Shown here piece by piece: positions 945-63,235 of a stretch of DNA of 64,000 nt. Origin of the DNA: Clostridia bacterium. Its GTDB lineage: Bacteria; Bacillota; Clostridia; TANB77; RGIG9151. The DNA lies in NCBI GenBank assembly GCA_017934955.1, contig JAGBIO010000024.1, positions 14,550 through 78,549 on the forward strand, in the 5' to 3' direction. The notes under the pieces are model-generated. The model ran no database searches and was not told where the DNA came from. It worked only from the letters and a program-made list of their open reading frames with translations. A program made the translations under genes and the position numbers. Numbering within the stretch: position 1 is the stretch's first letter; each line of letters opens with the position of its first letter.

Positions 945-1080
945 GCCTATACGGACACAATAAATTGTGCCCCTGCGCCTGCTTTTACCTTAATCCTTCC
1001 GTACGGACACAATTTATTGTGTCCCTATATTGTTTGTGCCTCTATCCTTCTGTGCGGACAGCATTCATGCTGTCCTGCCT
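945..1080. repeat. Cluster of three REP-like GTAG-palindrome hairpins (stem families B and A)
   Basis: Two GGACACAAT-(AA/TT)-ATTGTG(T/C)CC palindromes and one GGACAGCAT-TC-ATGCTGTCC palindrome. Each is preceded by a (t)gt/atacg(g) leader. The spurious ORFs 965..1153 and 1017..1337 overlap them. Confidence 0.8.
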
Positions 1081-2429: not shown

Positions 2430-2630
2430 CGTGCCTGTTCCAAGGACAGCATTCATGCTGTCCATACATTGTCTGTGCCTTATTTTATGCTACTTCTGCA
2501 GAATTAGCTCTTTCCTTCTGTACGGACAGCATTCATGCTGTCCATATATTGTTCATGCCTTATTTTATGCTGCTCCTACGAGATTGGCTCTTTCCGTACG
2601 GACAGCTTTCATGCTGTCCTGCCTTTTCCC
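2430..2630. repeat. Cluster of three REP-like GGACAGCAT-TC-ATGCTGTCC hairpins
   Basis: Perfect 9-bp-stem palindromes at ~2441-2462, ~2527-2548 and ~2601-2622, each with a 5' (c)tgtacg(g)/aagg leader. They lie in the intergenic gap between der and glmU. Confidence 0.8.
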
Positions 2631-4127: not shown

Positions 4128-4197
4128 GTAGGGACAGCATAAATGCTGTCCCTACAATCCATCTTCTGTACGGACAGCATTCATGCTGTCCTGCTTT
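4128..4197. repeat. REP-like doublet (family A)
   Basis: TGTAGGGACAGCATAAATGCTGTCCCTACA is fully symmetric, with GTAG on both sides. It is followed by cTGTACGGACAGCATTCATGCTGTCC. Confidence 0.8.
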
Positions 4198-8221: not shown

Positions 8222-8252
8222 CCATCGTAGGGGACGGCGTCCTCGACGTCCC
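8222..8252. repeat. REP-like hairpin, family C (GTAGGGGACGGCGTCCTCGACGTCCC)
   Basis: A GTAG leader plus a GC-rich palindrome (GGGACG...CGTCCC). It is followed by a T-run. Confidence 0.8.
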
Positions 8253-8295: not shown

Positions 8296-8450
8296 ATAGT
8301 TATTATTCAGACTATATCTCCTATAATACCGATACACCCATTGTAGGGACAGCATTCATGCTGTCCTGCTTTTTGCCTTTTCTGTGGACAGCATAAATGC
8401 TGTCCCTACACTATTTATGCTATTTCTATAAATTTAAGTCTGAATAGTAC
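8296..8450. mobile_element. MITE-like element: REPIN (inverted REP doublet) flanked by ~12-bp terminal inverted repeats TATTCAGACT...AGTCTGAATA
   Basis: Core TGTAGGGACAGCATTCATGCTGTCC...GGACAGCATAAATGCTGTCCCTACA with outer inverted repeats TATTCAGACTATA / TTAAGTCTGAATAGTA. The same architecture recurs at 12300-12460, 17330-17460, 17490-17630, 32935-33060 and 46130-46250. Confidence 0.7.
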
Positions 8451-8500
8451 CGTTATATAGGCAAAATCTTCAACTTTTCCTATATAAGAAAAAAAGGGCT

Positions 8501-11117: not shown

Positions 11118-11150
11118 ATTGTAGGGGCGAGCATTGCTCGCCCGAATTTC
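11118..11150. repeat. REP-like hairpin, family D (TGTAGGGGCGAGCA-TT-GCTCGCCC)
   Basis: A GTAG leader plus a perfect 9-bp palindrome. A second copy lies at 40953-40985. Confidence 0.8.
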
Positions 11151-12299: not shown

Positions 12300-12460
12300 T
12301 AAAGAGATAGTTACTGATCAGACTTAACAACTTATTATTTTCGCTAAAGCCTTGTAGGGACAGCATTCATGCTGTCCTGCATTCCGCATTTTCTGTGGAC
12401 AGCATAAATGCTGTCCCTACACTATTTATGCTATTTCTATAAATTTAAGTCTGAATAGTA
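12300..12460. mobile_element. MITE-like REPIN element (family A) with AGTCTGA-type outer inverted repeats
   Basis: TGATCAGACTTAACAA...TTGTAGGGACAGCATTCATGCTGTCC...GGACAGCATAAATGCTGTCCCTACA...TTTAAGTCTGAATAGTA. Confidence 0.7.
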
Positions 12461-12469
12461 ACAAGAGAG

Positions 12470-12610
12470 AACAAAAGTGTTTTGCGCAGGCAAAACACCT
12501 GCGCCGAACGCGAGTTGCGTAGCAACATTCCTTTCGCGTGAGTGTGCTTCCCTGCGGAGCGTTTTTTGTTGTATAGGCAAAATCTTTGATTTTTCCTATA
12601 CAACAAAAAA
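12470..12610. repeat. ~140-bp composite structured repeat (family E), copy 1 of 3
   Basis: AAAAGTGTTTTGCGCAGGCAAAAC...GCGAGTTGCGTAGCAAC...TGTATAGGCAAAATCTTTGATTTTTCCTATACA with several internal hairpins. Near-identical copies lie at 40985-41125 (opposite orientation) and 46113-46128 plus 46255-46400. Confidence 0.75.
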
Positions 12611-12640
12611 ATCCTCCGGTATCTCTACCGAAGGATTTTG
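12604..12640 (-). terminator. Rho-independent terminator of the rpsF-ssb-rpsR operon
   Basis: On the minus strand, AAAATCCTTCGGTAGAGATACCGGAGGATTTTTTT is a hairpin plus T-run, immediately after the rpsR stop. Confidence 0.5.
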
Positions 12641-12645
12641 ATTTC

Positions 12646-12918
12646 TTATTCTAATGTATAAGGAAGTAACGCAATGTGTCTTGCTCTTTTAATAGCAATT
12701 GTCAATTCTCTTTGATGCTTTGCACACAATCCGGTTACTCTTCTTGGAAGAATCTTTCCTTTTTCAGAAACATATTTCTTGATTTTATCTACTTGCTTAA
12801 AATCAATTTCTAAGTTCTTGTCTGCACAGTAAGCACAAACTTTTCTCTTAGGCTTTCTGATTCTTACATTATCGTCATCATTGTTGTTTCTGTTATTCTT
12901 CTTGTAATTTCCAGCCAT
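12646..12918 (-). CDS. rpsR: 30S ribosomal protein S18
   Basis: Conserved S18 core ([62 protein letters not shown]). The start is placed at MAGNYKK. Confidence 0.9.
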
Positions 12919-13861: not shown

Positions 13862-13893
13862 ACTGTAGGGGACGACGTCCTCGACGTCCCGCT
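13862..13893. repeat. REP-like hairpin, family C
   Basis: cTGTAGGGGACGACGTCCTCGACGTCCCGCTTT. Confidence 0.8.
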
Positions 13894-13971: not shown

Positions 13972-14190
13972 AGCTGTAAAAAAACTGCCTCAGGAAAATA
14001 AAATTTTCAAAACAATGACGGAGAACCGGCAAGTACAAACGGATAAGGAATGGGTAAACTCAACACGAGGTTGAGTTTAGCTTACCCCTGCCATGGACGG
14101 CAGATGTAAGCGGCCCATTCCGTTTCATTTTGTACTCCGGTTTGTAGTCCCTGTTTTGAAAATTTTATTTTCCTGAGGCAGTTTTTTACA
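13972..14190. repeat. ~210-bp element bounded by 35-40-bp perfect terminal inverted repeats with a highly structured interior (candidate MITE or structured ncRNA)
   Basis: Left arm CTGTAAAAAAACTGCCTCAGGAAAATAAAATTTTCAAAACA (13972-14012) and right arm TGTTTTGAAAATTTTATTTTCCTGAGGCAGTTTTTTACA (14148-14190) are perfect reverse complements. The interior has nested helices CCGGCAAGTACAAA/TTTGTACTCCGG and AAGGAATGGG/CCCATTCC and hairpins GGTAAACTCAACACGAGGTTGAGTTTAGC and CTGCCATGGACGGCAG. Confidence 0.5.
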
Positions 14191-26323: not shown

Positions 26324-28330
26324 CTACTCTTCCTCCGCCGTCGTCTTATTCAACTCGATAAAGAACGTCGTACCCTTTCCATCCTCTGACTCAAATCGCA
26401 TATCCCCGTTAAACTTCCCTTTAATCGTAGAGTAGCACATATACAATCCCAAACCGGTTCCGTTCTTACCCTTCGACGTAACCATTTCCTTAAACAATTT
26501 ATCCTTCACATGCGGTGCAATTCCGCCGGCATAATCCTGTACTTCGATATACACTTTTTTCTCATCTTCCCGCACTCTCACATCAATATCTCCGCCTTCA
26601 TGATAAGCATCCATTGCATTAATAATCAAGTTATCCATTACCTGCACAATTGCGCTGATTTCACCCTTAATATAAGAATCCTTATTAATCTGCAAATCCA
26701 AATTCAAGTTACAATGGCGACGTTTTAACTCATTTTTCATCAAAATCTGTGTCCGAACAATCAACTCCTCCGCACTAAACTTTCCAACCGTCGAAGCATT
26801 CATCGAAACCGCTTGTCCTTTTACCGCATCAATTACCTCCGTCATATAGCTCAAGTACGGACGTATCTTCTCAATCCACTCCTTCATCTCCTGCGCAATT
26901 TGATGATGGTCTTCCTTCGTCACCTCGGAATCTTCAATCGACTCATCGTATTCCTTCACTAAATCCGTTACCCCCTCCAAAGCACCGGAAATCGACATAA
27001 TCGGAGTTTTTAAATTATGTGCAATTCCTCCGATTAATTGACCCAACGAAGACAAACGTTCCTGTTCCACCAAAATTTCCTGGTTTCGTTCTATTTTCTC
27101 TATATTATTCTTCTCCAAATCCAAAATCTTATTAAACGCCACAACCAACTCGCCGATTTCATCATTCGACGTCACAACTAACTTTTTATCGTAATCAATC
27201 GCTACTTGTTCCGAAATATTCGTCAATTTATCCGCAATCTCTGTAATATCCGAAGACATATCTTCCGCAAAGTAATACAAGATAAAAATCGCGATAGCAA
27301 ACATCAAGAAAATACTTCCAAAGAATAAGAAGACCATATTTTCCGAAGACAAATCATAACGTATTCCAATAATATACTCATCTTCCCCTAATTGAATATA
27401 CTCTGCCGTCGCCTGAATATCCGAAGCATAATAGTCATACAAATGCCCGCTATATCGTTCTCCCACCAAAAGAGCATATTTTAACAAAAACTCACTTAAA
27501 GGCTCGCCTTCGTTAAAAATCTCTTTTCCATTTTTAATCACGAAAGCAGTATCCTTCTCACTGATTTTATCAATCTTCCCAATTGCCGCAATAATGTCAC
27601 TTTCCGAATCAATCCCACTTGAAACCAGATTTGTTAAGCGAATATTATATTCATCAAATCGCATAACACCCTTTTCATGAACCAAACGCGCATACCCCAC
27701 TAACGCCAAAAACACCGAAGTTACCAAGAAAAGAGGCAAAATTTGCAGGAAAATTCTACTTTTCAAATTAAACTGCAAAAACCCTTTTTTAGCTTCCAAA
27801 TTGTTGGTTCGAATCAGTAATTTTTTCATCAATTTTTTAGTAAACACATAGGTAGTAACAGACAATAACGCCATAAAAACGAACGCCAATGCCGAAATTT
27901 TAATAATTAGGCTAAATTCCGTTTTTGTTATGTACAATACCAACGCGATAACCAACGGAACCACAAACAGCTGACAAAGATACAACACATAAGGAATCCG
28001 AAAACATCTGCCCTGCAACTGCTCAATCTCTTTCCGACTTTCCTCATCCTTCTTTTCCAATAGTCTTCCAATCTTATTAAAATCCTTTATTTGAAACCAC
28101 ACAAACAAATCCACCAGTGCCATAATTACAAGCACAATCGCAATATACTGCTTATAATAGGTCGCTCCCGCATCAATCTGTGTTTCAAAATAACTGTTAA
28201 TTACCTCCGGTCCGTAATTTAAAACGGCAGGAATTAAAAAGTAGAACCCGATTCCCAATAACAAAACAATAATGTTATAAACTTTAATCAAACCCAGTGC
28301 CTCTTTATTCTTTTTCCTCATTGGTATCAT
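26324..28330 (-). CDS. Sensor histidine kinase (multi-TM sensor, HAMP, HisKA, HATPase_c)
   Basis: 668 aa with an N-terminal multi-TM sensor region and a HAMP-like segment. H-box is LSSLGQLIGGIAHNLKTP, N/G boxes are NLIINAMDAY and GTGLGLYMCYS. Its start overlaps the NRPS stop by ~25 nt. Confidence 0.85.
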   Translation of the reverse strand: MIPMRKKNKEALGLIKVYNIIVLLLGIGFYFLIPAVLNYGPEVINSYFETQIDAGATYYKQYIAIVLVIMALVDLFVWFQIKDFNKIGRLLEKKDEESRKEIEQLQGRCFRIPYVLYLCQLFVVPLVIALVLYITKTEFSLIIKISALAFVFMALLSVTTYVFTKKLMKKLLIRTNNLEAKKGFLQFNLKSRIFLQILPLFLVTSVFLALVGYARLVHEKGVMRFDEYNIRLTNLVSSGIDSESDIIAAIGKIDKISEKDTAFVIKNGKEIFNEGEPLSEFLLKYALLVGERYSGHLYDYYASDIQATAEYIQLGEDEYIIGIRYDLSSENMVFLFFGSIFLMFAIAIFILYYFAEDMSSDITEIADKLTNISEQVAIDYDKKLVVTSNDEIGELVVAFNKILDLEKNNIEKIERNQEILVEQERLSSLGQLIGGIAHNLKTPIMSISGALEGVTDLVKEYDESIEDSEVTKEDHHQIAQEMKEWIEKIRPYLSYMTEVIDAVKGQAVSMNASTVGKFSAEELIVRTQILMKNELKRRHCNLNLDLQINKDSYIKGEISAIVQVMDNLIINAMDAYHEGGDIDVRVREDEKKVYIEVQDYAGGIAPHVKDKLFKEMVTSKGKNGTGLGLYMCYSTIKGKFNGDMRFESEDGKGTTFFIELNKTTAEEE

Positions 28331-31300
28331 CCCTTTTTACAATATAAATACTCTTTATCATATAGCAAATGATTTTCTGAATATACTCTTTATCCATCTT
28401 CGGCCATTCAAAACCGGCTAATTCCAAAAAGTGTTTCGTAATATCGCTTTCCACTAAAATATCACTGCTGTAATTAAGGTTTCCCTCTTCTCCAAGATAG
28501 ATTTGACCAACCAGCCGGTCCTTATTTCCAACATACCGAAAATCCAAATTTCCCGCTTTCACCAATTCCAAGAACCGTTTTACCGTAATCATATTGTGAT
28601 TGGTAATATGAAAAATCCTTCCCGTCGCTTCCGGAATATCAAAAGTCTTCACAATCGCTTCCGCTGACAAATCAATCGGAGAAAATTCAATCTCCTTCTC
28701 CAACAACTCATCCGAAACCTTGTTTCCTTCCAAAACCAACCGAATCGTCGCATAAAAAGCGTTTTCCTCAATATTTTTCTGGAAAACCCCATCGGAATAT
28801 CGTCCTGTCAGGTTCCCCATCCGATAAATCGTCGCCTTTAATCCCTTCTTCATTTCCGCCAAAATCAAATTCTCACTCTCAAACTTGCTTCGCACATAAA
28901 TATTATCTTGATAAGCCTGTCCGATATAAAGATCCTTCTCAGAAAAAGTTTCCTTGGTACAACGATTATCCACCAAATACTCCCCTACAACCGTAATGGT
29001 AGAAACATAATTCATCTTAATATGAAATTGCTTTGCAAATTCAACAATATTCTGTGTCCCAACCACATTTATATTTCGAATATCTTCATAATCACCGTAG
29101 TACTTCACAATCGCAGCTGAATGAATAATATTATCAATCTTTTTCCCCATTTCCTCATATAATTCATTCGAGAAACCAAGTTTTTCAAAAGAAATATTAC
29201 CATCCACCACAAAAATTCTTTTATCCAACAAATCCTTATATTTCCCATCGAAATAGAAATCCAACGTATCTTCCAAACGATGTCTCGCCTTCTGCGCCTT
29301 ATTACTCCGAACCAAACAATAAATCTTACTATCCGAATTTCTCTCTATCAGAGCCTGTAAAATATGACTTCCCAAAAATCCGGTAGAACCGGTCAATAAA
29401 ACATTTTCCGACTTTTCACGCTTTCCGGAAAGCACTTTACACTCTTCAAATTCCGGAACTTCCTGTATCTCAACTTCATCCTTTTCTTTATTCGCAAGAT
29501 TTCCCGTTATCTTATCACTTAATTCTTGAATGGTAGGATACTGATAAAAATCCTGCACTCCAATATTCCATTGATACTTCAACAAACTCGTCAGCGCCCC
29601 GATAACCTTCAATGAATCTGCACCAAGTTCAAAAATATTCTGATTAATTCCGATTTCCTTTAAATTCAATACTTTTCGGAATGTCTCTGCCAATATTTTT
29701 TGCTCCTGCGTTTGCGGTAAAATGAGTTCAACCTCCTCATCTTCCTGCACAATCTCCGGCAACTGCTTCCGATCTAACTTTCCATTCGCCGAAAGTGGCA
29801 TAGCCGGAAGCTGCATATAATAACTCGGCACCATATATTCCGGCATTTTAAGCATCAAAGACTTCTTCAATTCCTTCACATCAATCGACTTCTTCGCCAC
29901 AAAATAAGCGCACAAATTCTTAATACCGGTATTTTTATCTTCCCGTACAATAACAACCGCTTCATTAATTCCGTTAAAATCCTTAATCCGCGTCTCAATT
30001 TCCCCAATTTCAATTCGGAATCCCCGAATTTTAATTTGAAAATCAATACGTCCCATGTACTCAATATCGCCTTTCGGCATATAACGCGCCAAATCTCCCG
30101 TTTTGTACATCTTTGTTCCCGGTACAAACGGATTATCTACAAACTTCTCATCCGTCAAAGTTGGATTATTCACATAGCCTCTTGCCAAACCGTCGCCCGC
30201 AATATACAACTCTCCGATAATTCCAACCGGAAGAAGATTTTTATTACGATCCAGCACATATAACTGAATATTATCAATCGGCTTTCCAATCGGAATAATC
30301 CCGTTTGCCGGCGTCGGAGAACAATTAAAATAGGAAACATCCACCGTCGCCTCTGTCGGACCGTACAAATTCACTAGCTGCGCACCCGATTTGGTATAAA
30401 TCAAATTATTAAACTTTTTCACCTGATCCAATGTTAAAGCTTCGCCACTTGCAAACACCCATCGTAACGACGTTAGAGACTGAATATCTTTCGAAACATC
30501 CACATACTCTAAAAAAGCATTTAGCATGGAAGGCACAAAATGCATCACTGTCACATGATGTTCCTTCACCGCAGAAATAATTTTATCCGGATACTTCTGC
30601 GCCCCCGGCTCCAACATACACACTTTCGCCCCGACAAAATACCACCAAACAAGCTCCCATACCGAAACATCAAAGGTATAAGGCGTCTTCTGCAAAATAA
30701 CATCCTTCTCCGTGAGCGGATAACTTTTTTGCATCCAATGAATTCGATTAACCGCAGAATAATGCTCAATCATTGCACCCTTCGGCTTTCCGGTAGAACC
30801 CGATGTATAAATTACGTACGCCAAATTTCTTGAATGGTGCAATTTTTCTGCCTTTCGATAAGGCTCCTCTTTCAAAGCATCATTATTTACCTCAACTCTT
30901 TGAACCCCTTCTACCGTCGTTTTCACCGGTTCATGCGATAAAAAGAGCTTTGCACCGCTGTTTTCCAACATATAATTCACACGATCCATCGGGTAATCCG
31001 GATCCATCGGCATATACGCCGCACCCGCCTTATGAATCGCCAAAATTCCGATAATCATCTCTACCGAACGATACATTAACACACCAATAATATCATCCGG
31101 CTTTACTCCCAAATCTCTTAATCTCGCCGCTAATTTATCTGCCCTGTCATTTAACTCCTCATAAGTAAGCGATTTTCCCTCTGCCATCACTGCAACATTC
31201 TTCGGCGTTTTCCTCACCTGTTGCTCGAAAATCCGATCCAAAGTCATCTCCTTCGGGTACTCACAAGCCGTATCGTTAAACCCTAAAAGAATTCGATCCT

Positions 31301-32606
31301 TTTCCTTCTGCGAAACCATCTCCAAACTGCACAATTTCTTTTCGGGATTATCCAACGCATGCCACAGAAGTCGAATAATATGATCATGCAAAAACTCAAT
31401 TTCCTTCGCATAAAACATATCCTCCAAATAATCGTAGCTAACAATTAACGTTCCCTCGTTATCCCTATCATTCAAATCAATCGTCAAACTATGCGTCTGA
31501 TGTCCGTTAAAATGCCATCTCGTTGTATAAGGAACTTCCTCATCACTCGCAAACTTAGAATTTTGATACGACAAAATAATATCAAACAAAGCATCCTCCG
31601 TATCAAATTTTTCACGCAATTCTTTCTTCAAAACGTCATATGGATACTTTTGATTCCGCAAAATTCCCATCAATTCCGCTGAGAATTTTTTTGAAAAAGA
31701 TACCAGATTATCCTCCGGCTTAATTTCTGCCTTTATCGTAACGGTATTCGCAAACATCCCAATCATTTTCTTCTCACTCTGATTTCCACGATTCAAAATC
31801 AAAGTACCGAAATTAAAGCTTTCCTTCCCAATTGCACGATAAATATACATTGAAATCGCCGTCGAAAAAATAGAAAACACCGAAATATTGGTTTCTTCCG
31901 AATACTCTTTTAACTTCTTACATAATTTTTCCGGCAGAACATAGCTTTTTCGCTTCGCCGCCGTAGAAATCGTATTCGTCTTTCTCAATTTTAATTTCGC
32001 CGCCTCAAAGCCCTCCGAAAACTTATCCAACCAGTATTTTTGCGAACGCTCGTACTTTTTCGAATGATTATACTCCTCTTCCGTCTGAATATACTCCAAA
32101 TAGGACGGCGTCTCTAAATGAATCTCCTTTCCATGCAACATCGCTTTATAGCAATCAATAATCTCATTCACTGCCGTCACCATCGTCCAACCATCCGAAA
32201 TCAAATGATGCATTTTGATATAAAAAGAAATTTTTTCCTCTCTCTTCATAATCGCAAAATAAAAAAGATTATTTTCATAGATGTCAAAAGGAACCCTCGC
32301 TTGGGTTTCTTCCCATGAAAAATAATCTTCCTGTGTCTTTCCGGAAAAATCAATTACCTCGATGTCATAGTATTGATACGGCACCACAAACTGCATGGTC
32401 TCCCCATCTGCTTCCTTAAAATGAAGTCGAAAACCATCGTTTAACTCAATCACTTTATTAATTGCTTTTTTTAAAATTTCTATATCAATATCCTTCTCCA
32501 CAAAATTTACACTTCCGGCAATTACGCCCAAACTTGTTCCCGGATTAAATTTCTCCATAAAAAGCAAATTTCTCTGCGGATGCGTTAAAGAATACAATTT
32601 TTCCAT
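28305..32606 (-). CDS. Single-module nonribosomal peptide synthetase with C-A-T-R architecture (condensation, adenylation, thiolation, terminal NAD(P)H thioester reductase)
   Basis: 1433 aa. The C domain has HHLISDGWT, the A domain has YTSGSTGKPKG and YKTGDLARY plus GRIDFQIKIRGFRIEIGEIE, the PCP has FELGADSLK, and the R domain has LLTGSTGFLGSHIL (Rossmann) plus a YxxxK region. Confidence 0.9.
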   Translation of the reverse strand: MEKLYSLTHPQRNLLFMEKFNPGTSLGVIAGSVNFVEKDIDIEILKKAINKVIELNDGFRLHFKEADGETMQFVVPYQYYDIEVIDFSGKTQEDYFSWEETQARVPFDIYENNLFYFAIMKREEKISFYIKMHHLISDGWTMVTAVNEIIDCYKAMLHGKEIHLETPSYLEYIQTEEEYNHSKKYERSQKYWLDKFSEGFEAAKLKLRKTNTISTAAKRKSYVLPEKLCKKLKEYSEETNISVFSIFSTAISMYIYRAIGKESFNFGTLILNRGNQSEKKMIGMFANTVTIKAEIKPEDNLVSFSKKFSAELMGILRNQKYPYDVLKKELREKFDTEDALFDIILSYQNSKFASDEEVPYTTRWHFNGHQTHSLTIDLNDRDNEGTLIVSYDYLEDMFYAKEIEFLHDHIIRLLWHALDNPEKKLCSLEMVSQKEKDRILLGFNDTACEYPKEMTLDRIFEQQVRKTPKNVAVMAEGKSLTYEELNDRADKLAARLRDLGVKPDDIIGVLMYRSVEMIIGILAIHKAGAAYMPMDPDYPMDRVNYMLENSGAKLFLSHEPVKTTVEGVQRVEVNNDALKEEPYRKAEKLHHSRNLAYVIYTSGSTGKPKGAMIEHYSAVNRIHWMQKSYPLTEKDVILQKTPYTFDVSVWELVWWYFVGAKVCMLEPGAQKYPDKIISAVKEHHVTVMHFVPSMLNAFLEYVDVSKDIQSLTSLRWVFASGEALTLDQVKKFNNLIYTKSGAQLVNLYGPTEATVDVSYFNCSPTPANGIIPIGKPIDNIQLYVLDRNKNLLPVGIIGELYIAGDGLARGYVNNPTLTDEKFVDNPFVPGTKMYKTGDLARYMPKGDIEYMGRIDFQIKIRGFRIEIGEIETRIKDFNGINEAVVIVREDKNTGIKNLCAYFVAKKSIDVKELKKSLMLKMPEYMVPSYYMQLPAMPLSANGKLDRKQLPEIVQEDEEVELILPQTQEQKILAETFRKVLNLKEIGINQNIFELGADSLKVIGALTSLLKYQWNIGVQDFYQYPTIQELSDKITGNLANKEKDEVEIQEVPEFEECKVLSGKREKSENVLLTGSTGFLGSHILQALIERNSDSKIYCLVRSNKAQKARHRLEDTLDFYFDGKYKDLLDKRIFVVDGNISFEKLGFSNELYEEMGKKIDNIIHSAAIVKYYGDYEDIRNINVVGTQNIVEFAKQFHIKMNYVSTITVVGEYLVDNRCTKETFSEKDLYIGQAYQDNIYVRSKFESENLILAEMKKGLKATIYRMGNLTGRYSDGVFQKNIEENAFYATIRLVLEGNKVSDELLEKEIEFSPIDLSAEAIVKTFDIPEATGRIFHITNHNMITVKRFLELVKAGNLDFRYVGNKDRLVGQIYLGEEGNLNYSSDILVESDITKHFLELAGFEWPKMDKEYIQKIICYMIKSIYIVKRDDTNEEKE

Positions 32607-32904: not shown

Positions 32905-32934
32905 AAGAAACGTTACTGTTCAAACTTAAAATTA

Positions 32935-33060
32935 TAAAAATGGCACAAACACTGTAGGGACAGCATTCATGCTGTCCTGCATTCCGCATTTTCTGCGGAC
33001 AGCATGAATGCTGTCCCTACAAGGCTTTAGTGCAAATAATAAGTTGTTAAGTCTAACCAG
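32935..33060. mobile_element. MITE-like REPIN element (family A)
   Basis: CTGTAGGGACAGCATTCATGCTGTCC...GCGGACAGCATGAATGCTGTCCCTACAAGG...TTAAGTCTAACCAGTAAC. Confidence 0.7.
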
Positions 33061-33065
33061 TAACA

Positions 33066-35861: not shown

Positions 35862-35929
35862 AATCTCATCTCCCTCCTTGTTACAATTTAGATTATAAAT
35901 TATAAAAATGGCACAATCTCTGTACGGAC

Positions 35930-36100
35930 ACAATTCATTGTGTCCTAATTCTAATGTCTACCTATTTTCCGGCCATAAAAATGGCACAAACACTGTAGGG
36001 ACACAATTCATTGTGTCCTAATTCTAATGCCTACCTATTTGGGCATAATAATGACACAATCATTGTAGGGACAGCATTTATGCTGTCCTTTCTATCTATT
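35930..36100. repeat. Three tandem REP-like hairpins (two family B, one family A) in direct orientation
   Basis: CTGTACGGACACAATTCATTGTGTCC, CTGTAGGGACACAATTCATTGTGTCC and ATTGTAGGGACAGCATTTATGCTGTCC, each followed by a similar ~35-bp tail (TAATTCTAATG.CTACCTATTT..GGCCATAA). Confidence 0.8.
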
Positions 36101-36867: not shown

Positions 36868-36900
36868 AACATCCGTACGGACACAATTTATTGTGTCCTG
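36868..36900. repeat. REP-like hairpin, family B
   Basis: CCGTACGGACACAATTTATTGTGTCC. Confidence 0.8.
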
Positions 36901-38164: not shown

Positions 38165-38402
38165 AATATATTGTAGGGTCACAATTCATGCTATCCTGCC
38201 TTTCTGTCTTTTCTGTGGACAGCATAAATGCTGTCCCTACACCATTTGTGCCATTTTCTACATTTGAAAAATACAGGCGTACGGACAGCATTCATGCTGT
38301 CCTATTTTCCAACATTCGCTCATTTCCCGGACACAATGAATTGTGTCCCTACGGCGATTGTGCCATTATTGTAGGGGACGGCGTCCTCGACGTCCCGATA
38401 TA
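38165..38402. repeat. Cluster of five REP-like hairpins mixing stem families A, B, C and a hybrid
   Basis: ATTGTAGGGTCACAATTCATGCTATCC (a decayed A/B hybrid), GGACAGCATAAATGCTGTCCCTACA, CGTACGGACAGCATTCATGCTGTCC, CGGACACAATGAATTGTGTCCCTACGG and TTGTAGGGGACGGCGTCCTCGACGTCCCG. Confidence 0.8.
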
Positions 38403-38433
38403 TTTGCACCAATTTAAATTGAATATACATCCC

Positions 38434-40952: not shown

Positions 40953-41125
40953 ATGTAGGGGCGAGCACTGCTCGCCCGTTTTTCGGTGTATAGGCAAAAT
41001 CTTTGATTTTGCCTATACACCGAAAAACGCTCCGCGAGGATGCACACTCGTGCGCAAGGAAAGTTGCTACGCAACTCGCACTCGGCGCAGGTGCTTTGCC
41101 TACGCAAAGCACTTTTGTTCCACAA
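40953..41125. repeat. Family-D REP hairpin fused to copy 2 of the ~140-bp composite repeat (family E, inverted relative to copy 1)
   Basis: ATGTAGGGGCGAGCACTGCTCGCCC is followed by TTTTTCGGTGTATAGGCAAAATCTTTGATTTTGCCTATACACCGAAAAA...GTTGCTACGCAACTCGC...GCCTACGCAAAGCACTTTTGTTCC, the reverse complement of the 12470-12610 element at ~85-90% identity. Confidence 0.75.
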
Positions 41126-46112: not shown

Positions 46113-46400
46113 TAAAGAAAAGTGTTTTGCGTAGGTTACAGGTCAGACTCAACCTTTATATGTACCTTAAATGTTTCTCAATCTATTGTAGGGACAGCAT
46201 TTATGCTGTCCTGCTTTTCCGCCTTTTCTGCGGACAGCATGGCACTCAAAGCTTCCCAAGAACGTAGTGATTGGCTGGTTTCGACTGCGCCGCGAGTTGC
46301 GTAGCAACATTCCTTTCGCGTGAGTGTGCTTCCCCGCAGAGCGTTTTTAGTTGTATAGGAAAATCAAAGATTTTGCCTATATAACTAAAAACACTGTCAA
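46113..46400. repeat. Copy 3 of the ~140-bp composite repeat (family E), interrupted by a degenerate MITE-like family-A REPIN
   Basis: AAAAGTGTTTTGCG at 46113-46126 and TGCGCCGCGAGTTGCGTAGCAACATTCC...TGTATAGGAAAATCAAAGATTTTGCCTATATAAC at 46290-46400 match the ends of copy 1. Between them lies TAGGTTACAGGTCAGACTCAACC...ATTGTAGGGACAGCATTTATGCTGTCC...GCGGACAGCATG|GCACTC, a MITE left end plus a truncated second hairpin. Confidence 0.7.
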
Positions 46401-50339: not shown

Positions 50340-50476
50340 CAGAATGTGGTTTGTAGGGACACAATTTATTGTGTCCTAATTCTAAGCATCTGCCTATTTC
50401 CGGACACAATAAATTGTGTCCCTACAGTGTTTGTGCCGTCATTGTAGGGGACGGTGTCCTCGACGTCCCGATATAT
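50340..50476. repeat. Family-B REPIN (inverted doublet) plus a family-C REP hairpin
   Basis: TTGTAGGGACACAATTTATTGTGTCC (50351-50376) and CGGACACAATAAATTGTGTCCCTACAG (50401-50427) are in inverted orientation, followed by ATTGTAGGGGACGGTGTCCTCGACGTCCCG (50441-50470). Confidence 0.8.
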
Positions 50477-50597
50477 TTGCAACAATTTTAGACTGCCTAA
50501 TATCACTTATTCCACGAAATCACAAATTAGTATGGCTTTTTTTCAAAAAATAATGTATACTATAGATATCTATATTGTGAAAGGGCGTTGATAAAAA

Positions 50598-50965: not shown

Positions 50966-50993
50966 AAACTCGCCCCTACACCATAATATGTAA

Positions 50994-51128
50994 AAAGGTC
51001 ATAAAAGGTTCTAACTATCAGGCCATAAAAGGTTCTAACTATCAGGCCATAAAAGGTTCTAACTATCAGGCCATAAAAGGTTCTAACTATCAGGCCATAA
51101 AAGGTTCTAACTATCAGGCCATAAAAGT
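50994..51128. repeat. Perfect 24-bp tandem repeat, 5 full copies plus partial units (unit CCATAAAAGGTTCTAACTATCAGG)
   Basis: Five identical 24-mers start at 51006, 51030, 51054, 51078 and 51102, with partial units at both ends. The array is immediately followed by the hydrogenase operon terminator hairpin. Confidence 0.9.
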
Positions 51129-51153
51129 GCGGACCTTTTTCAAGGTCCGCACT
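51119..51153 (-). terminator. Rho-independent terminator of the hydCBA operon
   Basis: On the minus strand, AGTGCGGACCTTGAAAAAGGTCCGCACT is followed by TTTTAT, 8 nt after the hydA stop. Confidence 0.55.
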
Positions 51154-58682: not shown

Positions 58683-58752
58683 TTGTAGGGTCAGCATTCA
58701 TGCTGTCCTGCTTTCTGCCTATTCTGTGGACAGCATAAATGCTGTCCCTACA
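58683..58752. repeat. Family-A REPIN inside the dnaA-dnaN intergenic (oriC) region
   Basis: TTGTAGGGTCAGCATTCATGCTGTCC...TGTGGACAGCATAAATGCTGTCCCTACACC. Confidence 0.8.
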
Positions 58753-59107: not shown

Positions 59108-60442
59108 TTAATACAATAAGTTCTTTTTTATTTCATCAATGGTATTTTTTAATTCTTTTTTCTCGTTAATATCCTTTGAAATCTTATTGCAAGCGTGGAT
59201 TACCGTTGTATGATCTCTTTTGCCGAATTCAAATCCGATTTTCGGTAAAGATAAGTTTGCCACTTCTCGGCAAAGATACATGGCAATTTGTCTTGGATAG
59301 GCAATATCCGCGTTTCTCTTTACTCCTTTTAAATCTTCCACTTTGATATTAAAGTATTTTGCAACGACATCTTGAATCAAATCAATCGTAATGTTCTTAG
59401 TTTTTATATTTGTAATATCTTTTAATGCTTGCATCGCAATCTCTAACGTAACCGGTTCATTATTTAAATGTGCCAACGCTAAAATTTTATTTAACGCACC
59501 TTCCAATTCACGAATATTGGTATCGATTCTCTCTGCGATAAATGCGTTAATTTCATCCGGCACTTCAATACGATCCAACTGTGCTTTCTTTCTTAAAATT
59601 GCAATTCGAGTTTCGTAATCCGGCGTTTGAACGTCAGCTGTTAAGCCCCATTCAAAACGAGAACGTAAACGATCTTCCAACGGTTCAATATCCTTTGGCG
59701 GACGATCGCTGGAGATAATAATCTGTTTATTGGCTTCATAAAGAGCATTAAAGGTGTGGAAAAATTCTTCCTGTGTTCCCTCTTTTCCTGCAATAAATTG
59801 AATATCATCCACCAATAGTACATCTACATTACGATACCGATTTCGAAACGCGTTATTTCCTTCCGTCGCTTGTTCCTTAATGGCGTTGATAAAATCATTC
59901 GTAAATTTTTCAGATGTGATATAAAGAATCTTTTGACTTGGGTTTTGTTGTAAAATGTAGTGTCCGATTGCGTGCATCAAATGGGTTTTGCCAAGTCCCA
60001 CACCGCCATATAAGAACAGCGGGTTGTACGCTTTTGCAGGTGCTTCCGCTACCGCTAAAGAAGCTGCATGTGCAAAGCGGTTGTTATTACCTACCACAAA
60101 ATTTTCAAATATGTAACGCGGGTTTAATCCGGTAGAACTTTGGTCGGCCGGTTTCACACCCGGCATTTTTGTTTCAACTTCTTTTTTTGCTTCATCCGGA
60201 ATGAGATATTTTATTTCATAATCCTGATTGGTAACAAATTTAACGGTATTTTTCAATAAGTCATGAAATCTTGACTGAATGTTTGTCCTATGAAAATCAG
60301 ACGGAACTTGAATAAAAAATGAATTATTTTCCACATAAAGCGGTTTCAAATCCGCAATCCAAGTATTAAAGCTGATTGCCGTTACTTCTCCTTTTAAACA
60401 GTCTAATATTTTTTCCCAATCGGATTGTAAAATTTGTGACAT
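59108..60442 (-). CDS. dnaA: Chromosomal replication initiator protein DnaA
   Basis: 444 aa with AAA+ Walker A GGVGLGKTHL and a C-terminal DnaA-box-binding HTH. It is flanked by DnaA-box clusters. Confidence 0.95.
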   Translation of the reverse strand: MSQILQSDWEKILDCLKGEVTAISFNTWIADLKPLYVENNSFFIQVPSDFHRTNIQSRFHDLLKNTVKFVTNQDYEIKYLIPDEAKKEVETKMPGVKPADQSSTGLNPRYIFENFVVGNNNRFAHAASLAVAEAPAKAYNPLFLYGGVGLGKTHLMHAIGHYILQQNPSQKILYITSEKFTNDFINAIKEQATEGNNAFRNRYRNVDVLLVDDIQFIAGKEGTQEEFFHTFNALYEANKQIIISSDRPPKDIEPLEDRLRSRFEWGLTADVQTPDYETRIAILRKKAQLDRIEVPDEINAFIAERIDTNIRELEGALNKILALAHLNNEPVTLEIAMQALKDITNIKTKNITIDLIQDVVAKYFNIKVEDLKGVKRNADIAYPRQIAMYLCREVANLSLPKIGFEFGKRDHTTVIHACNKISKDINEKKELKNTIDEIKKNLLY

Positions 60443-60544: not shown

Positions 60545-60750
60545 TTAAGTTATCCACAATTTTATCCACAAGTGTTGATAACGCATAAACAAAAGCTTTG
60601 AAATTTTATCTTTCGTGAAATATAGTATTAGACGTTGTTAATTAAATGTTGATAAAATCAATTAAATACTAAGCAAATACAATATATCAGAAAATTTACG
60701 GGTTTTCAATATAAATGTGGATAAAAATTTAAATATCCACAGAACTTTTG
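60545..60750. promoter_or_regulatory. oriC / dnaA promoter region: upstream DnaA-box cluster
   Basis: TTATCCACA at 60553 and 60566, TGTTGATAA at 60579, TGTGGATAA at 60716 and ATATCCACA at 60737. Confidence 0.8.
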
Positions 60751-60892: not shown

Positions 60893-60922
60893 TTGTAGGG
60901 GGCGGCGTCCTCGACGCCCCGA
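60893..60922. repeat. REP-like hairpin, family C variant (GTAGGGGGCGGCGTCCTCGACGCCCC)
   Basis: Compared with GGGACG...CGTCCC elsewhere, the outer stem carries compensatory changes (GGGGCG...CGCCCC). Confidence 0.8.
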
Positions 60923-60979: not shown

Positions 60980-63235
60980 ATGATTGATTTTGAGAATTTA
61001 AACGCACCACAAAAGGAAGCAGTACAAACAACAGAAGGTCCTCTTCTTGTAATTGCCGGAGCAGGTTCCGGAAAAACAAGAGTTCTTACCTATCGAATTG
61101 CTTATTTGATTTCGGAAAAGCAAGTAAAGCCTTATAACATTTTAGCGATTACCTTTACCAATAAAGCAGCAAAAGAAATGAAAGAACGTGTTACTTCCCT
61201 ACTTGGAAAAACGGCGGAAGAAACATGGATCAGCACCTTCCACTCTTTGTGTGTAAAAATTCTACGCTATGATATCGATAAAATTCAATATGACAAGAAT
61301 TTTGTCATTTTAGATGCCGCTGACCAAAAAACATTGATAAAAGAATGTCAAAAAGAATTAAACATTGATGATAAAAATTATCCGCAAGGATATTTGTTAA
61401 GCGAAATCAGTCGTGCCAAAAACAATTTGTTATCGCCGGAGGAATACACAAAACGTTATCAGGCCGATTTTCGTCTCTCTAAGGTAGCATTAGTATATGA
61501 GTTATATCAAAAGAAGCTAAAAAACGAAAATGCGCTTGATTTTGATGATTTAATTATGCAAACGATTCGCCTGTTTATGGAAAACCCTGAGGTACTTTCT
61601 TTTTATCAGAATAAATTTCGGTATATTTTAATTGATGAGTATCAGGATACCAATCCGGCACAGTTTACTTTAGTAAGTATGTTAGCGGCCGGTTTCGGCA
61701 ATATTTGTGCGGTTGGTGATGATGACCAGAGTATTTATGCGTTCCGCGGTGCGGATATGAGAAATATTTTGGAATTCGAACAAACCTTTCCGGGAGCCAA
61801 AGTCATTAAACTAGAGCAAAATTACCGTTCTACGGCAAATATTTTAAATGCTGCGAACGAGGTAATTAAGAATAATGTCGGAAGAAAATCCAAAAAGTTG
61901 TGGACAGAAAACGGTTCCGGATCGAAAATTCAGTTTAATCGTGCGGAAAACGAAAGAGAAGAAGCAAGATATATTATCGATCAGATTAAATATTTGCATG
62001 AAAAAGAACAGCGTGATTATCGCTCGTTTGGTGTACTTTATCGAATTAATGCGCAATCTCGAATCATTGAAGATTATTTAATGAGTGAAGCACTACCGTA
62101 CAAAGTAGTCGGCGGAATGAAATTCTATGATAGAAAGGAAATTAAAGATATTATCGCTTATTTGCGTTTTATTTATAATCCTGCTGATTTTGTCAGCTTA
62201 AAACGTATTATCAATGAGCCAAAAAGAGGAATCGGAAAGACGTCGATGGACAATATTCAGAAATATATGAATCAAAATGAGGTAAACTGTTGGTATGTGT
62301 TAGATCATATTCAGGATATCCCTGACATTTCCCGTTCGGTGGCAGCCATTCGAGAATTTACGGAATCGATAAAAGAGTTTTCGTTACTGGCAAACGACGG
62401 AGAACATTTGGTATCGGAACTAATCAAAACAATCCTCGAAAAGACAGGATACATCAATGTTCTAAGGAATGAAGAGTCGATAGAGAATCAGACAAGAATT
62501 GAAAATATCATGGAATTTATTGCGGTAGCGGAAGAATATGAAAGAGAAGCGGAAACACCAAACTTATCGGATTTCTTAGAGAATATTGCCTTGGTAACCG
62601 ATATGGATGAAAACAGCGAAGATAGTGATTATATCACGCTTATGACTATTCATAGTGCAAAAGGTTTAGAGTTTCCGGTTGTCTTTATTCCCGGAATGGA
62701 AGAGGGGGTTTTCCCGGGATATCGTTCTATCGGAAGTGATGAGGATATTGAAGAAGAACGACGTCTTTGTTATGTGGGAATCACAAGAGCACGAGAGAAG
62801 CTGTACATCAGCTGTTCGCGAATGAGAACGTTATTTGGAAACACCTCTTGCAATGCACCTTCTCGATTTATTGAAGAAATACCGGAAGAGTTAATGGAAG
62901 GGTATCAAAAGTATGAGAAATTAAGTTCGGACTTTGAAGAAGCAAACCATTATGCGTTAAATCATATTGGATATATGCCGCAAAAGTCGCAAGTGACTCG
63001 TCCTGTTGCTGCGTCAAATTATTTAGATCGTATCGGAGGACATAAAATTTCTGCAACGCAGGTAAATAACGATTTATCGGTATTTGAGAAAGGAAAATTT
63101 GTTATGCATAAACGTTTCGGAGCGGGTGTTATTACGAATATTACGCCGGAAAACGATGACCTAATGTTGGAAATTATGTTTGAAAATGCCGGAATGAAAC
63201 GCTTAATGGCGAAATACGCCCAATTGGAAGTGTAG
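60980..63235 (+). CDS. pcrA: ATP-dependent DNA helicase PcrA (UvrD/Rep superfamily 1)
   Basis: 751 aa with Walker A AGAGSGKTRVLT and helicase motifs through to the C-terminal Tudor-like tail. The N-terminus is MIDFENLNAPQKEAV. Confidence 0.9.
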   Translation: MIDFENLNAPQKEAVQTTEGPLLVIAGAGSGKTRVLTYRIAYLISEKQVKPYNILAITFTNKAAKEMKERVTSLLGKTAEETWISTFHSLCVKILRYDIDKIQYDKNFVILDAADQKTLIKECQKELNIDDKNYPQGYLLSEISRAKNNLLSPEEYTKRYQADFRLSKVALVYELYQKKLKNENALDFDDLIMQTIRLFMENPEVLSFYQNKFRYILIDEYQDTNPAQFTLVSMLAAGFGNICAVGDDDQSIYAFRGADMRNILEFEQTFPGAKVIKLEQNYRSTANILNAANEVIKNNVGRKSKKLWTENGSGSKIQFNRAENEREEARYIIDQIKYLHEKEQRDYRSFGVLYRINAQSRIIEDYLMSEALPYKVVGGMKFYDRKEIKDIIAYLRFIYNPADFVSLKRIINEPKRGIGKTSMDNIQKYMNQNEVNCWYVLDHIQDIPDISRSVAAIREFTESIKEFSLLANDGEHLVSELIKTILEKTGYINVLRNEESIENQTRIENIMEFIAVAEEYEREAETPNLSDFLENIALVTDMDENSEDSDYITLMTIHSAKGLEFPVVFIPGMEEGVFPGYRSIGSDEDIEEERRLCYVGITRAREKLYISCSRMRTLFGNTSCNAPSRFIEEIPEELMEGYQKYEKLSSDFEEANHYALNHIGYMPQKSQVTRPVAASNYLDRIGGHKISATQVNNDLSVFEKGKFVMHKRFGAGVITNITPENDDLMLEIMFENAGMKRLMAKYAQLEV

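Follow-up and report, generated by a model that had tools for sequence, protein, structure and literature searches.

A dense population of REP and REPIN elements in a gut clostridial chromosome and its probable link to a subclass 2.4 RAYT

Repetitive extragenic palindromic (REP) sequences, the REP doublets that form hairpins (REPINs) and RAYTs, the tyrosine transposases associated with REPs, have been studied almost solely in Proteobacteria, and it has been argued that the REP/REPIN-RAYT systems are 'residents' of bacterial chromosomes, long-lived and inherited vertically. Here we analyze a 64,000-nucleotide stretch of DNA (the window) from an uncultured Clostridia bacterium (GenBank assembly GCA_017934955.1, contig JAGBIO010000024.1), in which some forty short hairpins, most of them preceded by the tetranucleotide GTAG, lie in the gaps between genes. 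We consider these units to be, most likely, REPs of the GTAG superfamily, organized as REPINs and as clusters that resemble bacterial interspersed mosaic elements (BIMEs), i.e. non-autonomous mobile DNA moved by a RAYT of subclass 2.4. This class of unit is known already and no new mechanism is revealed; the unusual aspects are its host and a recent burst of copies specific to this lineage. The initial annotation of the window called such elements a classically Gram-negative feature, and the searchable REP/RAYT literature agrees, as no Firmicute REP or REPIN population is described in it; the RAYT genes that Bertels et al. 2017 report from Clostridia are of group 1 only.

The closest described system is that of subclass 2.4 in Quentin et al. 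2018 (PMC6006769), which corresponds to group 4 in the RAYT scheme of Bertels et al. 2017 and in which the enzymes carry the motifs NH[IFV]H, WQ and YIxNNP and the REPs have a GT[AG]G foot, a stem base rich in G-C pairs, double-foot units and an in-frame position within the gene. The units described here share the foot at the hairpin base, the G-C-rich base (GGG/CCC when the G of the tag pairs), the 'long' perfect palindromes and a double-foot unit (4128-4155), and in these respects they match the REPs of subclass 2.4/group 4. Likewise, the RAYT family that we find beside an identical unit in other genomes has the NH[IFV]H, WQ and YIxNN motifs and in-frame REPs. The differences are that nine units here carry GTAC and that the tyrosine motif of this RAYT family reads YIxNNV, not YIxNNP.

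Other systems resemble the locus in part. For example, the REPINs of Pseudomonas fluorescens SBW25 (Bertels & Rainey 2011, PMC3116915; group 3 RAYT) also consist of two inverted REPs with a short spacer in a hairpin of ~100-150 nt, have the doublet as the replicating unit with singles as decayed doublets, and are non-genic and lineage-specific; they differ in RAYT group, stems and phylum, and the density here is high, at 0.6 units per kb. The REPs and BIMEs of Escherichia coli, which belong with TnpAREP (group 2/subclass 2.2; structure 4ER8), share the GTAG foot, alternating clusters, intra-operon positions and a conserved irregularity of the stem (a required bulge in E. coli, a mismatch in one of our four stem types, type D), whereas our types A to C are short perfect palindromes without a bulge and the enzyme family is distant (E = 1.3e-7 to 4ER8). 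GTAG families 1-24, as presented in the main text of Di Nocera et al. 2013 (PMC3733652), are similar in their terminal GTAG, stems of 6-13 bp, loops of 2-3 nt (often TY) and clusters, and in dimers whose tags point either outward or inward; neither Firmicutes nor Clostridia are mentioned in that main text. Finally, the ends of IS200/IS605 elements also combine a sub-terminal hairpin, a 5' guide tetranucleotide and single-stranded DNA (ssDNA) handled by an HUH/Y1 enzyme, but the hairpins here do not enclose a tnpA or tnpB, and the conserved GTAG and the RAYT-type family mark the units as REPs.

Number, design and arrangement of the units

An overlapping scaffold from ENA, corrected for a 72-bp tandem-repeat difference, added 9 kb to the window, and we scanned the resulting 73 kb tolerantly (GTA[GC] foot, stem of at least 7 bp, at most 1 mismatch). 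The scan yielded 42 tagged hairpins, compared with a mean of 2.75 in 20 dinucleotide-preserving shuffles. Within the window itself there are 39 (0.61 per kb), so the initial count of about 40 GTAG-tagged hairpins stands, as do all 18 of the clusters that it named. Tag and hairpin are tightly coupled: TGTAGGG occurs 30 times in the window where 3.8 are expected (maximum of 9 in 100 shuffles), a hairpin follows TGTAGG at 24 of 37 sites but follows eight control hexamers at only 2 of 169, and of the 34 perfect hairpins in the window that are rich in GC, 29 belong to this set of units, with the other five resembling ordinary terminators. A perfect match to the family consensus is seen in 33 of the 42 units. 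For REPs, about 100 or more copies per genome is the norm; the copy number read here is 42 in 73 kb, or 0.6 per kb.

All units lie outside genes, the few overlaps with open reading frames (ORFs) involving spurious short ORFs or over-extended start codons. They occupy 17 of the 33 gaps of at least 60 bp, and the earlier statement that they fill nearly every intergenic gap was therefore too strong. Several of the unit-bearing gaps fall within likely operons, e.g. der-plsY and znuA-zupT-prfA. Three features that define a REP of the GTAG superfamily are thus present: a stem-loop palindrome of 20-40 nt, a 5' GTAG foot and a non-genic position.

The stems are of four types, namely A (GGACAGCAT-nn-ATGCTGTCC, 24 units), B (GGACACAAT-nn-ATTGTGTCC, 8 units), C (GGGCGAGCA-n-TGCTCGCCC, 2 units) and D (GGGACGGCG-TCCT-CGACGTCCC, 8 units). 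The common design is GTAG followed by G-G-(A/G)-C, five variable paired bases and a loop of 1-4 nt, giving stems of 9 bp. The foot is GTAG in 30 units, GTAC in 9 and decayed in 3 (ATAC, GTGC, CCAA), such that the claim of a universal GTAG applies to the first group and not to the other two. The accompanying claim of perfect palindromes applies to types A to C and fails for type D, in which position 7 of the stem stays mismatched in all eight units. Exactly complementary double substitutions are seen in three of these eight (GGTACG/CGTACC, GGGTCG/CGACCC and GGGGCG/CGCCCC); it is therefore the hairpin, and not a particular sequence, that is conserved.

How are these units put together? Eight type A inverted doublets have their tags outside and a common spacer of 19-20 nt, and the doublets are conserved over 67-109 nt. 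Four of them sit at the center of longer elements (about 150 nt), in which two inverted REPs and a 19-nt spacer are enclosed by outer arms of ~45 nt that are imperfect inverted repeats (GTTACnnTTCAGACTTAA ... about 25 nt ... TGTAG). The element at 8296-8450 reads as the initial annotation described it, with TGTAGGGACAGCATTCATGCTGTCC, a 19-nt T-rich spacer and the inverted copy GGACAGCATAAATGCTGTCCCTACA. Folded as ssDNA, two of the long elements (8296-8456 and 12310-12465) each give a single long hairpin, and they are 96% identical over 109 nt (8341-8449 versus 12352-12460); another pair of stretches, 38324-38415 and 50397-50488, is 90% identical over 92 nt. Additional arrangements include the double-foot unit, with tags on both of its sides, same-orientation tandem arrays (953-1075, 2444-2619 and 35922-36088) and clusters of alternating orientation (38169-38396, + - + - +; 50353-50469, + - +). 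Decayed partners are visible beside single units at 38173 and ~46231.

The locus thus has what characterizes REPINs, i.e. an inverted doublet with a short spacer that folds into one long hairpin, conservation of the doublet and singles produced by decay, and what characterizes BIMEs, i.e. regularly spaced REPs in alternating orientation. The REP/BIME/REPIN architecture proposed from the first look at the window is borne out by the GTAG foot, the short hairpin, the inverted doublets that fold into long hairpins and the position outside genes.

A RAYT family beside the same unit

What would move such units? In the mechanism that we favor, each unit, when single-stranded, would fold into a 9-bp hairpin with a GTAG foot; a RAYT (TnpAREP; HUH/Y1) would bind the folded REP with its foot, cut it through a 5'-phosphotyrosine intermediate and rejoin the strand. 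This binding and cleavage chemistry is that of enzymes studied elsewhere (PMC8266576; PMC6006769), and by analogy with the E. coli, Stenotrophomonas and Marinomonas enzymes it would amount to single-strand cut-and-paste. We infer that this genome has a RAYT: one subclass 2.4 gene, located elsewhere in the genome, would have spread the units through gene-free gaps in a recent expansion of the lineage. A secondary role for the host is possible, either in stabilizing or protecting mRNA 3' ends or in blocking antisense transcripts.

No RAYT was found in the window, either with a profile hidden Markov model (HMM) of 120 homologues run on the six-frame translation or with a search for the HUH...Y motif, which agrees with the initial annotation. 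RAYTs are typically single-copy genes (PMC8266576) and 64 kb is only a few percent of the genome, and so a RAYT-free window is uninformative. The further suggestion drawn from the missing gene, that the enzyme is distant or absent or that evolution was convergent, is not supported, on three counts: the single-copy habit of RAYTs, the presence of an identical unit beside RAYT genes elsewhere and the match to the subclass 2.4 design. Convergence is unnecessary because the units fit a REP class that has been described and whose enzyme family is known.

The link to an enzyme comes from a scan for the exact type A unit in one genome per species, which returned at least 90 stretches from Chloroflexota, Bacteroidota and Clostridia bins. 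Among the matches listed, a Muribaculum stretch (L071) contains a complete 172-aa HUH/Y1 RAYT gene with the identical 24-nt unit GTAGGGACAGCATnnATGCTGTCC on both sides, additionally flanked by arrays of a second unit, and a stretch labelled Clostridia (L074) contains a truncated RAYT homologue 170 bp from the identical unit. The family of these two proteins is RAYT-like. Its only NCBIfam match is REP_Tyr_transpos, below cut-off; it has 283 homologues, some of them named RayT by JGI; and its motifs are PNHFH, WQxRYHDHxIR and YIxNN. Compared with solved structures, the family profile scores best against E. coli TnpAREP (4ER8, E = 1.3e-7), with IS200-type enzymes at E > 0.3, and an AlphaFold model (pLDDT 83) matches HUH/Y1 transposases only, with 4ER8 again as the best fit (TM 0.59, rmsd 3.4 Å).

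The genes of this family are themselves accompanied by REPs. Of 80 metagenomic loci, 65 have strict units (GTAG plus a perfect hairpin) next to the gene or within it, and the 51 distinct stems at the 80 loci read G/A-G-A/G-C followed by variable bases, mostly over 9 bp, a design equal to that of types A to C; the stems of the window, which start GGAC, GGGC and GGGAC, fit the consensus. The RAYT genes (alignment A2, P0001-P0120; L094-L173) carry their own REPs in frame between the HUH and Tyr motifs, where they are translated as, for example, VGTRHGVS or DAxRRVPT, and several homologues are truncated exactly at the in-frame REP (L183-L186). A homology search with the RAYT fragment of L074 returned 13 proteins, all truncated; the two whose loci were looked up (P0121 and P0124) lie on low-GC contigs with other REP types.

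The type A unit is also shared more widely. Multiple copies of the 24-nt unit occur in Chloroflexota, Bacteroidota and Clostridia assemblies among the matches listed, and there too the GGACAGCAT unit regularly has a GGACGCCAT or GGACGCGAT unit as its partner, at a distance of 40-50 bp and with the tags facing inward. This pairing is seen in Chloroflexota, Muribaculum, a Bacteroidetes bin and RUG311, i.e. in four lineages with three phylum labels (loci L004, L006, L018, L020, L024-L026, L046, L071 and L075). The other parts of the population are not shared in this way: type C and D units, the outer arms and the spacer are absent from about 180 other loci, and type B has two matches in those loci, each with 2 mismatches (L030 and L042). 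Rfam contains no REP or REPIN match to the sequence at gathering thresholds, and a search of 12300-12680, which includes the 12358 REPIN, at E <= 1 gave nothing above the gathering score; a literature search for the exact unit sequence returned unrelated primer matches only. Carriage by phages was considered and rejected, since only 2 exact matches were found among 2.9 million viral contigs.

Host, recent expansion and competing explanations

The window derives from a ruminant-gut metagenome (ENA ERZ28655052 scaffold_409, BioSample SAMN15830104), for which there is also a Logan assembly, made from SRR12529200. The initial assignment to a sporulating Firmicute is supported because SpoIIR is encoded in the window (score above the curated cut-off), Spo0A is encoded just to its right in the extension, and the closest named relatives of its PrfA are from 'Clostridia bacterium' and 'Clostridiales bacterium' bins.

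Several observations speak for many copies and for recent gain. Three short-read Logan contigs of the same sample begin or end within units (L001 at window position 1023; L174 at 996 and 2537; L093 at 58724 and, in the extension, at 67477), as high-copy repeats cause de Bruijn assemblies to do, which points to many copies genome-wide. Matching regions in relatives, fetched with PrfA as the anchor, contain no true units in 21 kb (L175-L177, PrfA 90% identical), two units in 21 kb (L180, 94%) or three or four units with other stems (L178, 86%). In relatives, about 90 bp separate the AMP-ligase stop codon from the conserved promoter of prfA; here, a five-unit block of ~300 bp (at 38169-38396) is added, which is absent from the matching gap of L180, L181, L175 and L176 (alignment A3). 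Similarly, the znuA-zupT gap measures 21 bp in L175-L177 versus 174 bp with units here, and the zupT-prfA gap 14 bp versus 94 bp with a unit. The site at 46188, on the other hand, is common to L180, where a related unit, GGTCATCAT/GGTCAGCAT, shows a compensatory change (GGTC...GACC). With this insertion shared and the repeats lacking at the other matching gaps named, the family is older than the split and expanded afterwards in this lineage. The refuting condition named in the initial annotation, elements confined to the window, does not hold, given both the contig breaks and the related units carried by relatives. As a separate observation on these relatives, the window has 38% G+C versus 31-33% in their matching regions (PrfA 86-94% identical; L175-L182); the repeats are too few to be the source of this gap.

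The orientation of the units is also biased. A likely chromosomal replication origin lies in the window: the GC skew switches sign at about 60-62 kb; dnaA (59108-60442), dnaN and recF run leftward on the - strand; pcrA (60980-63235), spo0A and rpmH-rnpA-yidD-yidC-jag-mnmE-mnmG run rightward on the + strand (to ~73 kb, L092); and a TTATCCACA box is found in the origin region at 60562. Left of the origin, unpaired units at 12 independent loci always have GTAG on the + strand and the T-rich spacer is on the + strand in 8 of 8 doublets; the single doublet to the right (67541-67591) is inverted. Because genes are co-directional with replication on both sides of the origin, replication-linked insertion and transcription-linked selection are inseparable here. 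Additionally, a comparison of the REPINs at 12310-12465 and 32915-33065 shows common outer arms that are reversed in one relative to the other and a 19-nt spacer that points the same way in both; it seems that the inner part was flipped between inverted REP arms or was inserted both ways into a repeated target.

Mobile REPs moved by a subclass 2.4 RAYT would account for these findings, and a number of points nonetheless weigh against that reading. Transposition events were not observed directly, and the RAYT of this organism was not located in the 73 kb of its genome that were read. Both examples of a RAYT adjacent to the identical unit are metagenome bins, and in the one with the Clostridia label the gene is truncated. 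Nine units are GTAC units, a foot outside those on which RAYTs have been assayed. Chance could explain why the 24-nt unit is identical across phyla, given that only 5 stem positions are free, and the orientation bias could reflect host selection instead of the mechanism of transposition.

Among the alternatives, the one that survives best, albeit as an improbable one, is that the units are orphans, i.e. genuine REPs and REPINs in a lineage that has lost its RAYT, now decaying as relics and kept only by usefulness to the host or by time. Loss of the RAYT with persistence of REPINs has been documented, as in some E. coli strains (bioRxiv 10.1101/2021.07.10.451892), and the absence of a RAYT from the 73 kb, the decayed tags, the decayed partners at 38173 and 46231 and the nine GTAC tags would all suit such a history; 73 kb is, however, too short to argue that a gene is absent. 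The state of the population suits it less well: 33 of 42 units are perfect to the consensus, copies at least 4 kb apart are 90-96% identical over 92-109 nt, including spacer and flanks, and the density is far above that of relatives. Consensus-perfect units, near-identical distant copies and high density therefore favor recent amplification over long decay.

We give very little credence to the idea that the ~150-nt elements with arms GTTACnnTTCAGACTTAA... are miniature inverted-repeat transposable elements (MITEs) that belong to a conventional insertion sequence of the DDE type, with a classical transposase to move them and the hairpins as incidental passengers. The four long copies do have imperfect inverted arms of ~65 nt that reach well past the REP, but long flanking inverted arms are usual for REPINs, and the outer motif occurs only about 5 times, most units (singles, types C and D, tandem arrays) being without outer arms. 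Target-site duplications were sought around the long elements and none was convincing, the window has no transposase of any kind, and what is conserved across genomes and phyla is the GTAG hairpin and not the arms (0 of 180 other loci match arm or spacer).

Equally remote is convergence of ordinary, immobile host hairpins, such as intrinsic terminators or protein-binding operators, on a REP-like form: + units do look terminator-like in a consensus scan (a hairpin, then a T-rich tail) and sit at gene ends, but this tail is on the + strand, antisense to the neighboring genes, which are served by separate classical terminators, so that the units, which have no sense-strand U-tract, are not the terminators of those genes; moreover, a double-stranded operator would not be expected to come as four stem sequences with compensatory changes, entire blocks are insertions when compared with close relatives, RAYT genes elsewhere have the identical unit as a neighbor, and a GTAG foot has no role in termination.

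Wider meaning and neighboring features

If the units are mobile REPs moved by a RAYT, as we think probable, the known host range of active REPIN populations would widen to a spore-forming Firmicute in which they are dense, with few or none in close relatives. The sister lineages, at 0, about 0.1 and 0.6 units per kb, would offer a natural contrast for how such a population starts and grows. We offer only as a tentative idea, prompted by the shared type A unit and its recurring partner and one which we would not bet on, that a group-4 RAYT and its REPs moved between phyla in anaerobic gut or digester communities and then burst in this Firmicute lineage; if true, such inter-phylum transfer would contradict the view of REPIN-RAYT systems as solely vertical and essentially Gram-negative. 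There are practical consequences as well: the units fragment short-read assemblies of gut Clostridia, and blocks of ~300 bp added between genes of the same operon may change expression. The individual sites are collected in Table 1.

Table 1. REP units, REPINs and clusters in the window (unit types A to D as in the text; tags in parentheses; energies are for folding as ssDNA)
Coordinates	Strand	Feature	Units and details	Remarks
949..1075	+	three tandem units, der-plsY gap	B' 953-972 (tag ATAC, 1 stem mismatch); B 1001-1024 (GTAC); A 1052-1075 (GTGC)	
2440..2619	+	three type A units	2444-2463 (untagged); 2520-2543 (GTAC); 2596-2619 (GTAC, 1 mismatch)	within 80-bp local tandem duplication (family D9)
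4128..4191		double-foot unit, then single unit	double-foot A 4128-4155 (GTAGGGACAGCATAAATGCTGTCCCTAC); A 4168-4191 (+, GTAC)	
8227..8252	+	single type D	GTAGGGGACGGCGTCCTCGACGTCCC	
8296..8456		long REPIN	outer arms ATTCAGACT.../...TTAAGTCTGAAT; A 8343-8366 (+), 19-nt T-rich spacer, A 8386-8409 (-)	-30.5 kcal/mol, z = -8.45
11121..11143	+	single type C	GTAGGGGCGAGCATTGCTCGCCC	
12310..12465		long REPIN	A 12354-12377 (+), A 12397-12420 (-); outer inverted arms GTTACTGATCAGACTTAA / TTAAGTCTGAATAGTAAC	-37.2 kcal/mol, z = -10.2
13865..13890	+	single type D	A·A at the conserved mismatch	
17337..17630		two REPINs	17368-17391 (+, GTAC)/17412-17435 (-); 17525-17548 (+, GTAC)/17569-17592 (-)	within 157-bp tandem duplication (D4, D7: 94-96% identity)
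22885..22970		type D inverted doublet	22885-22910 (+), 22945-22970 (-)	different compensatory double change in each unit (GGTACG...CGTACC; GGGTCG...CGACCC)
32915..33065		long REPIN	A 32954-32977 (+), A 32997-33020 (-)	
35922..36088	+	three tandem units, znuA-zupT gap	B 35922-35945 (GTAC); B 35995-36018; A 36065-36088	ATAAAAATGGCACAAnCAnT precedes each unit (repeat family D5)
36875..36898	+	single type B, zupT-prfA gap	(GTAC)	
38169..38396		BIME-like five-unit cluster	decayed A 38173-38196 (+); A 38217-38240 (-); A 38279-38302 (+, GTAC); B 38329-38352 (-); D 38371-38396 (+)	
40955..40977	+	single type C		abuts a copy of the second (~140-nt) repeat family
46188..46250		type A with decayed inverted partner	A 46188-46211 (+); partner ~46231-46250	
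50353..50469		cluster	B 50353-50376 (+); B 50402-50425 (-); D 50444-50469 (+)	B(-)/D(+) pair is D11, matching 38324-38415
58685..58751		type A doublet	58685-58708 (+, 1 mismatch) / 58728-58751 (-)	
60895..60920	+	type D variant, dnaA-pcrA gap, likely origin region	GGGGCG...CGCCCC, compensatory	

A second, unrelated repeat family of ~140 nt is present at 12475-12610 (+), 40977-41114 (-) and 46291-46391 (+), with a partial copy at 8444-8494; it has a terminal hairpin, GTATAGGCAAAATCTTTGATTTTGCCTATAC, between T/A runs, no copy is more than about 150 bp away from a REP, and the family has no match in Rfam. Downstream of an [FeFe]-hydrogenase-like gene, 50972-51151 holds a 24-nt tandem repeat (AGGCCATAAAAGGTTCTAACTATC, about 6 copies), which is polymorphic in copy number, the ENA scaffold of this organism being 72 bp (3 units) shorter here than the window. 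The ORF at 28305-32606 (-) encodes a 1433-aa protein that resembles nonribosomal peptide synthetases (NRPSs), its counterpart in relatives having condensation, AMP-binding, PP-binding and reductase domains; an identification as PolC was rejected because that counterpart is NRPS-like, and a 668-aa histidine-kinase-like protein is encoded next to it. Lastly, 14016-14150 (+) matches the Rfam TwoAYGGAY RNA motif at 50.6 bits, versus a gathering score of 43.

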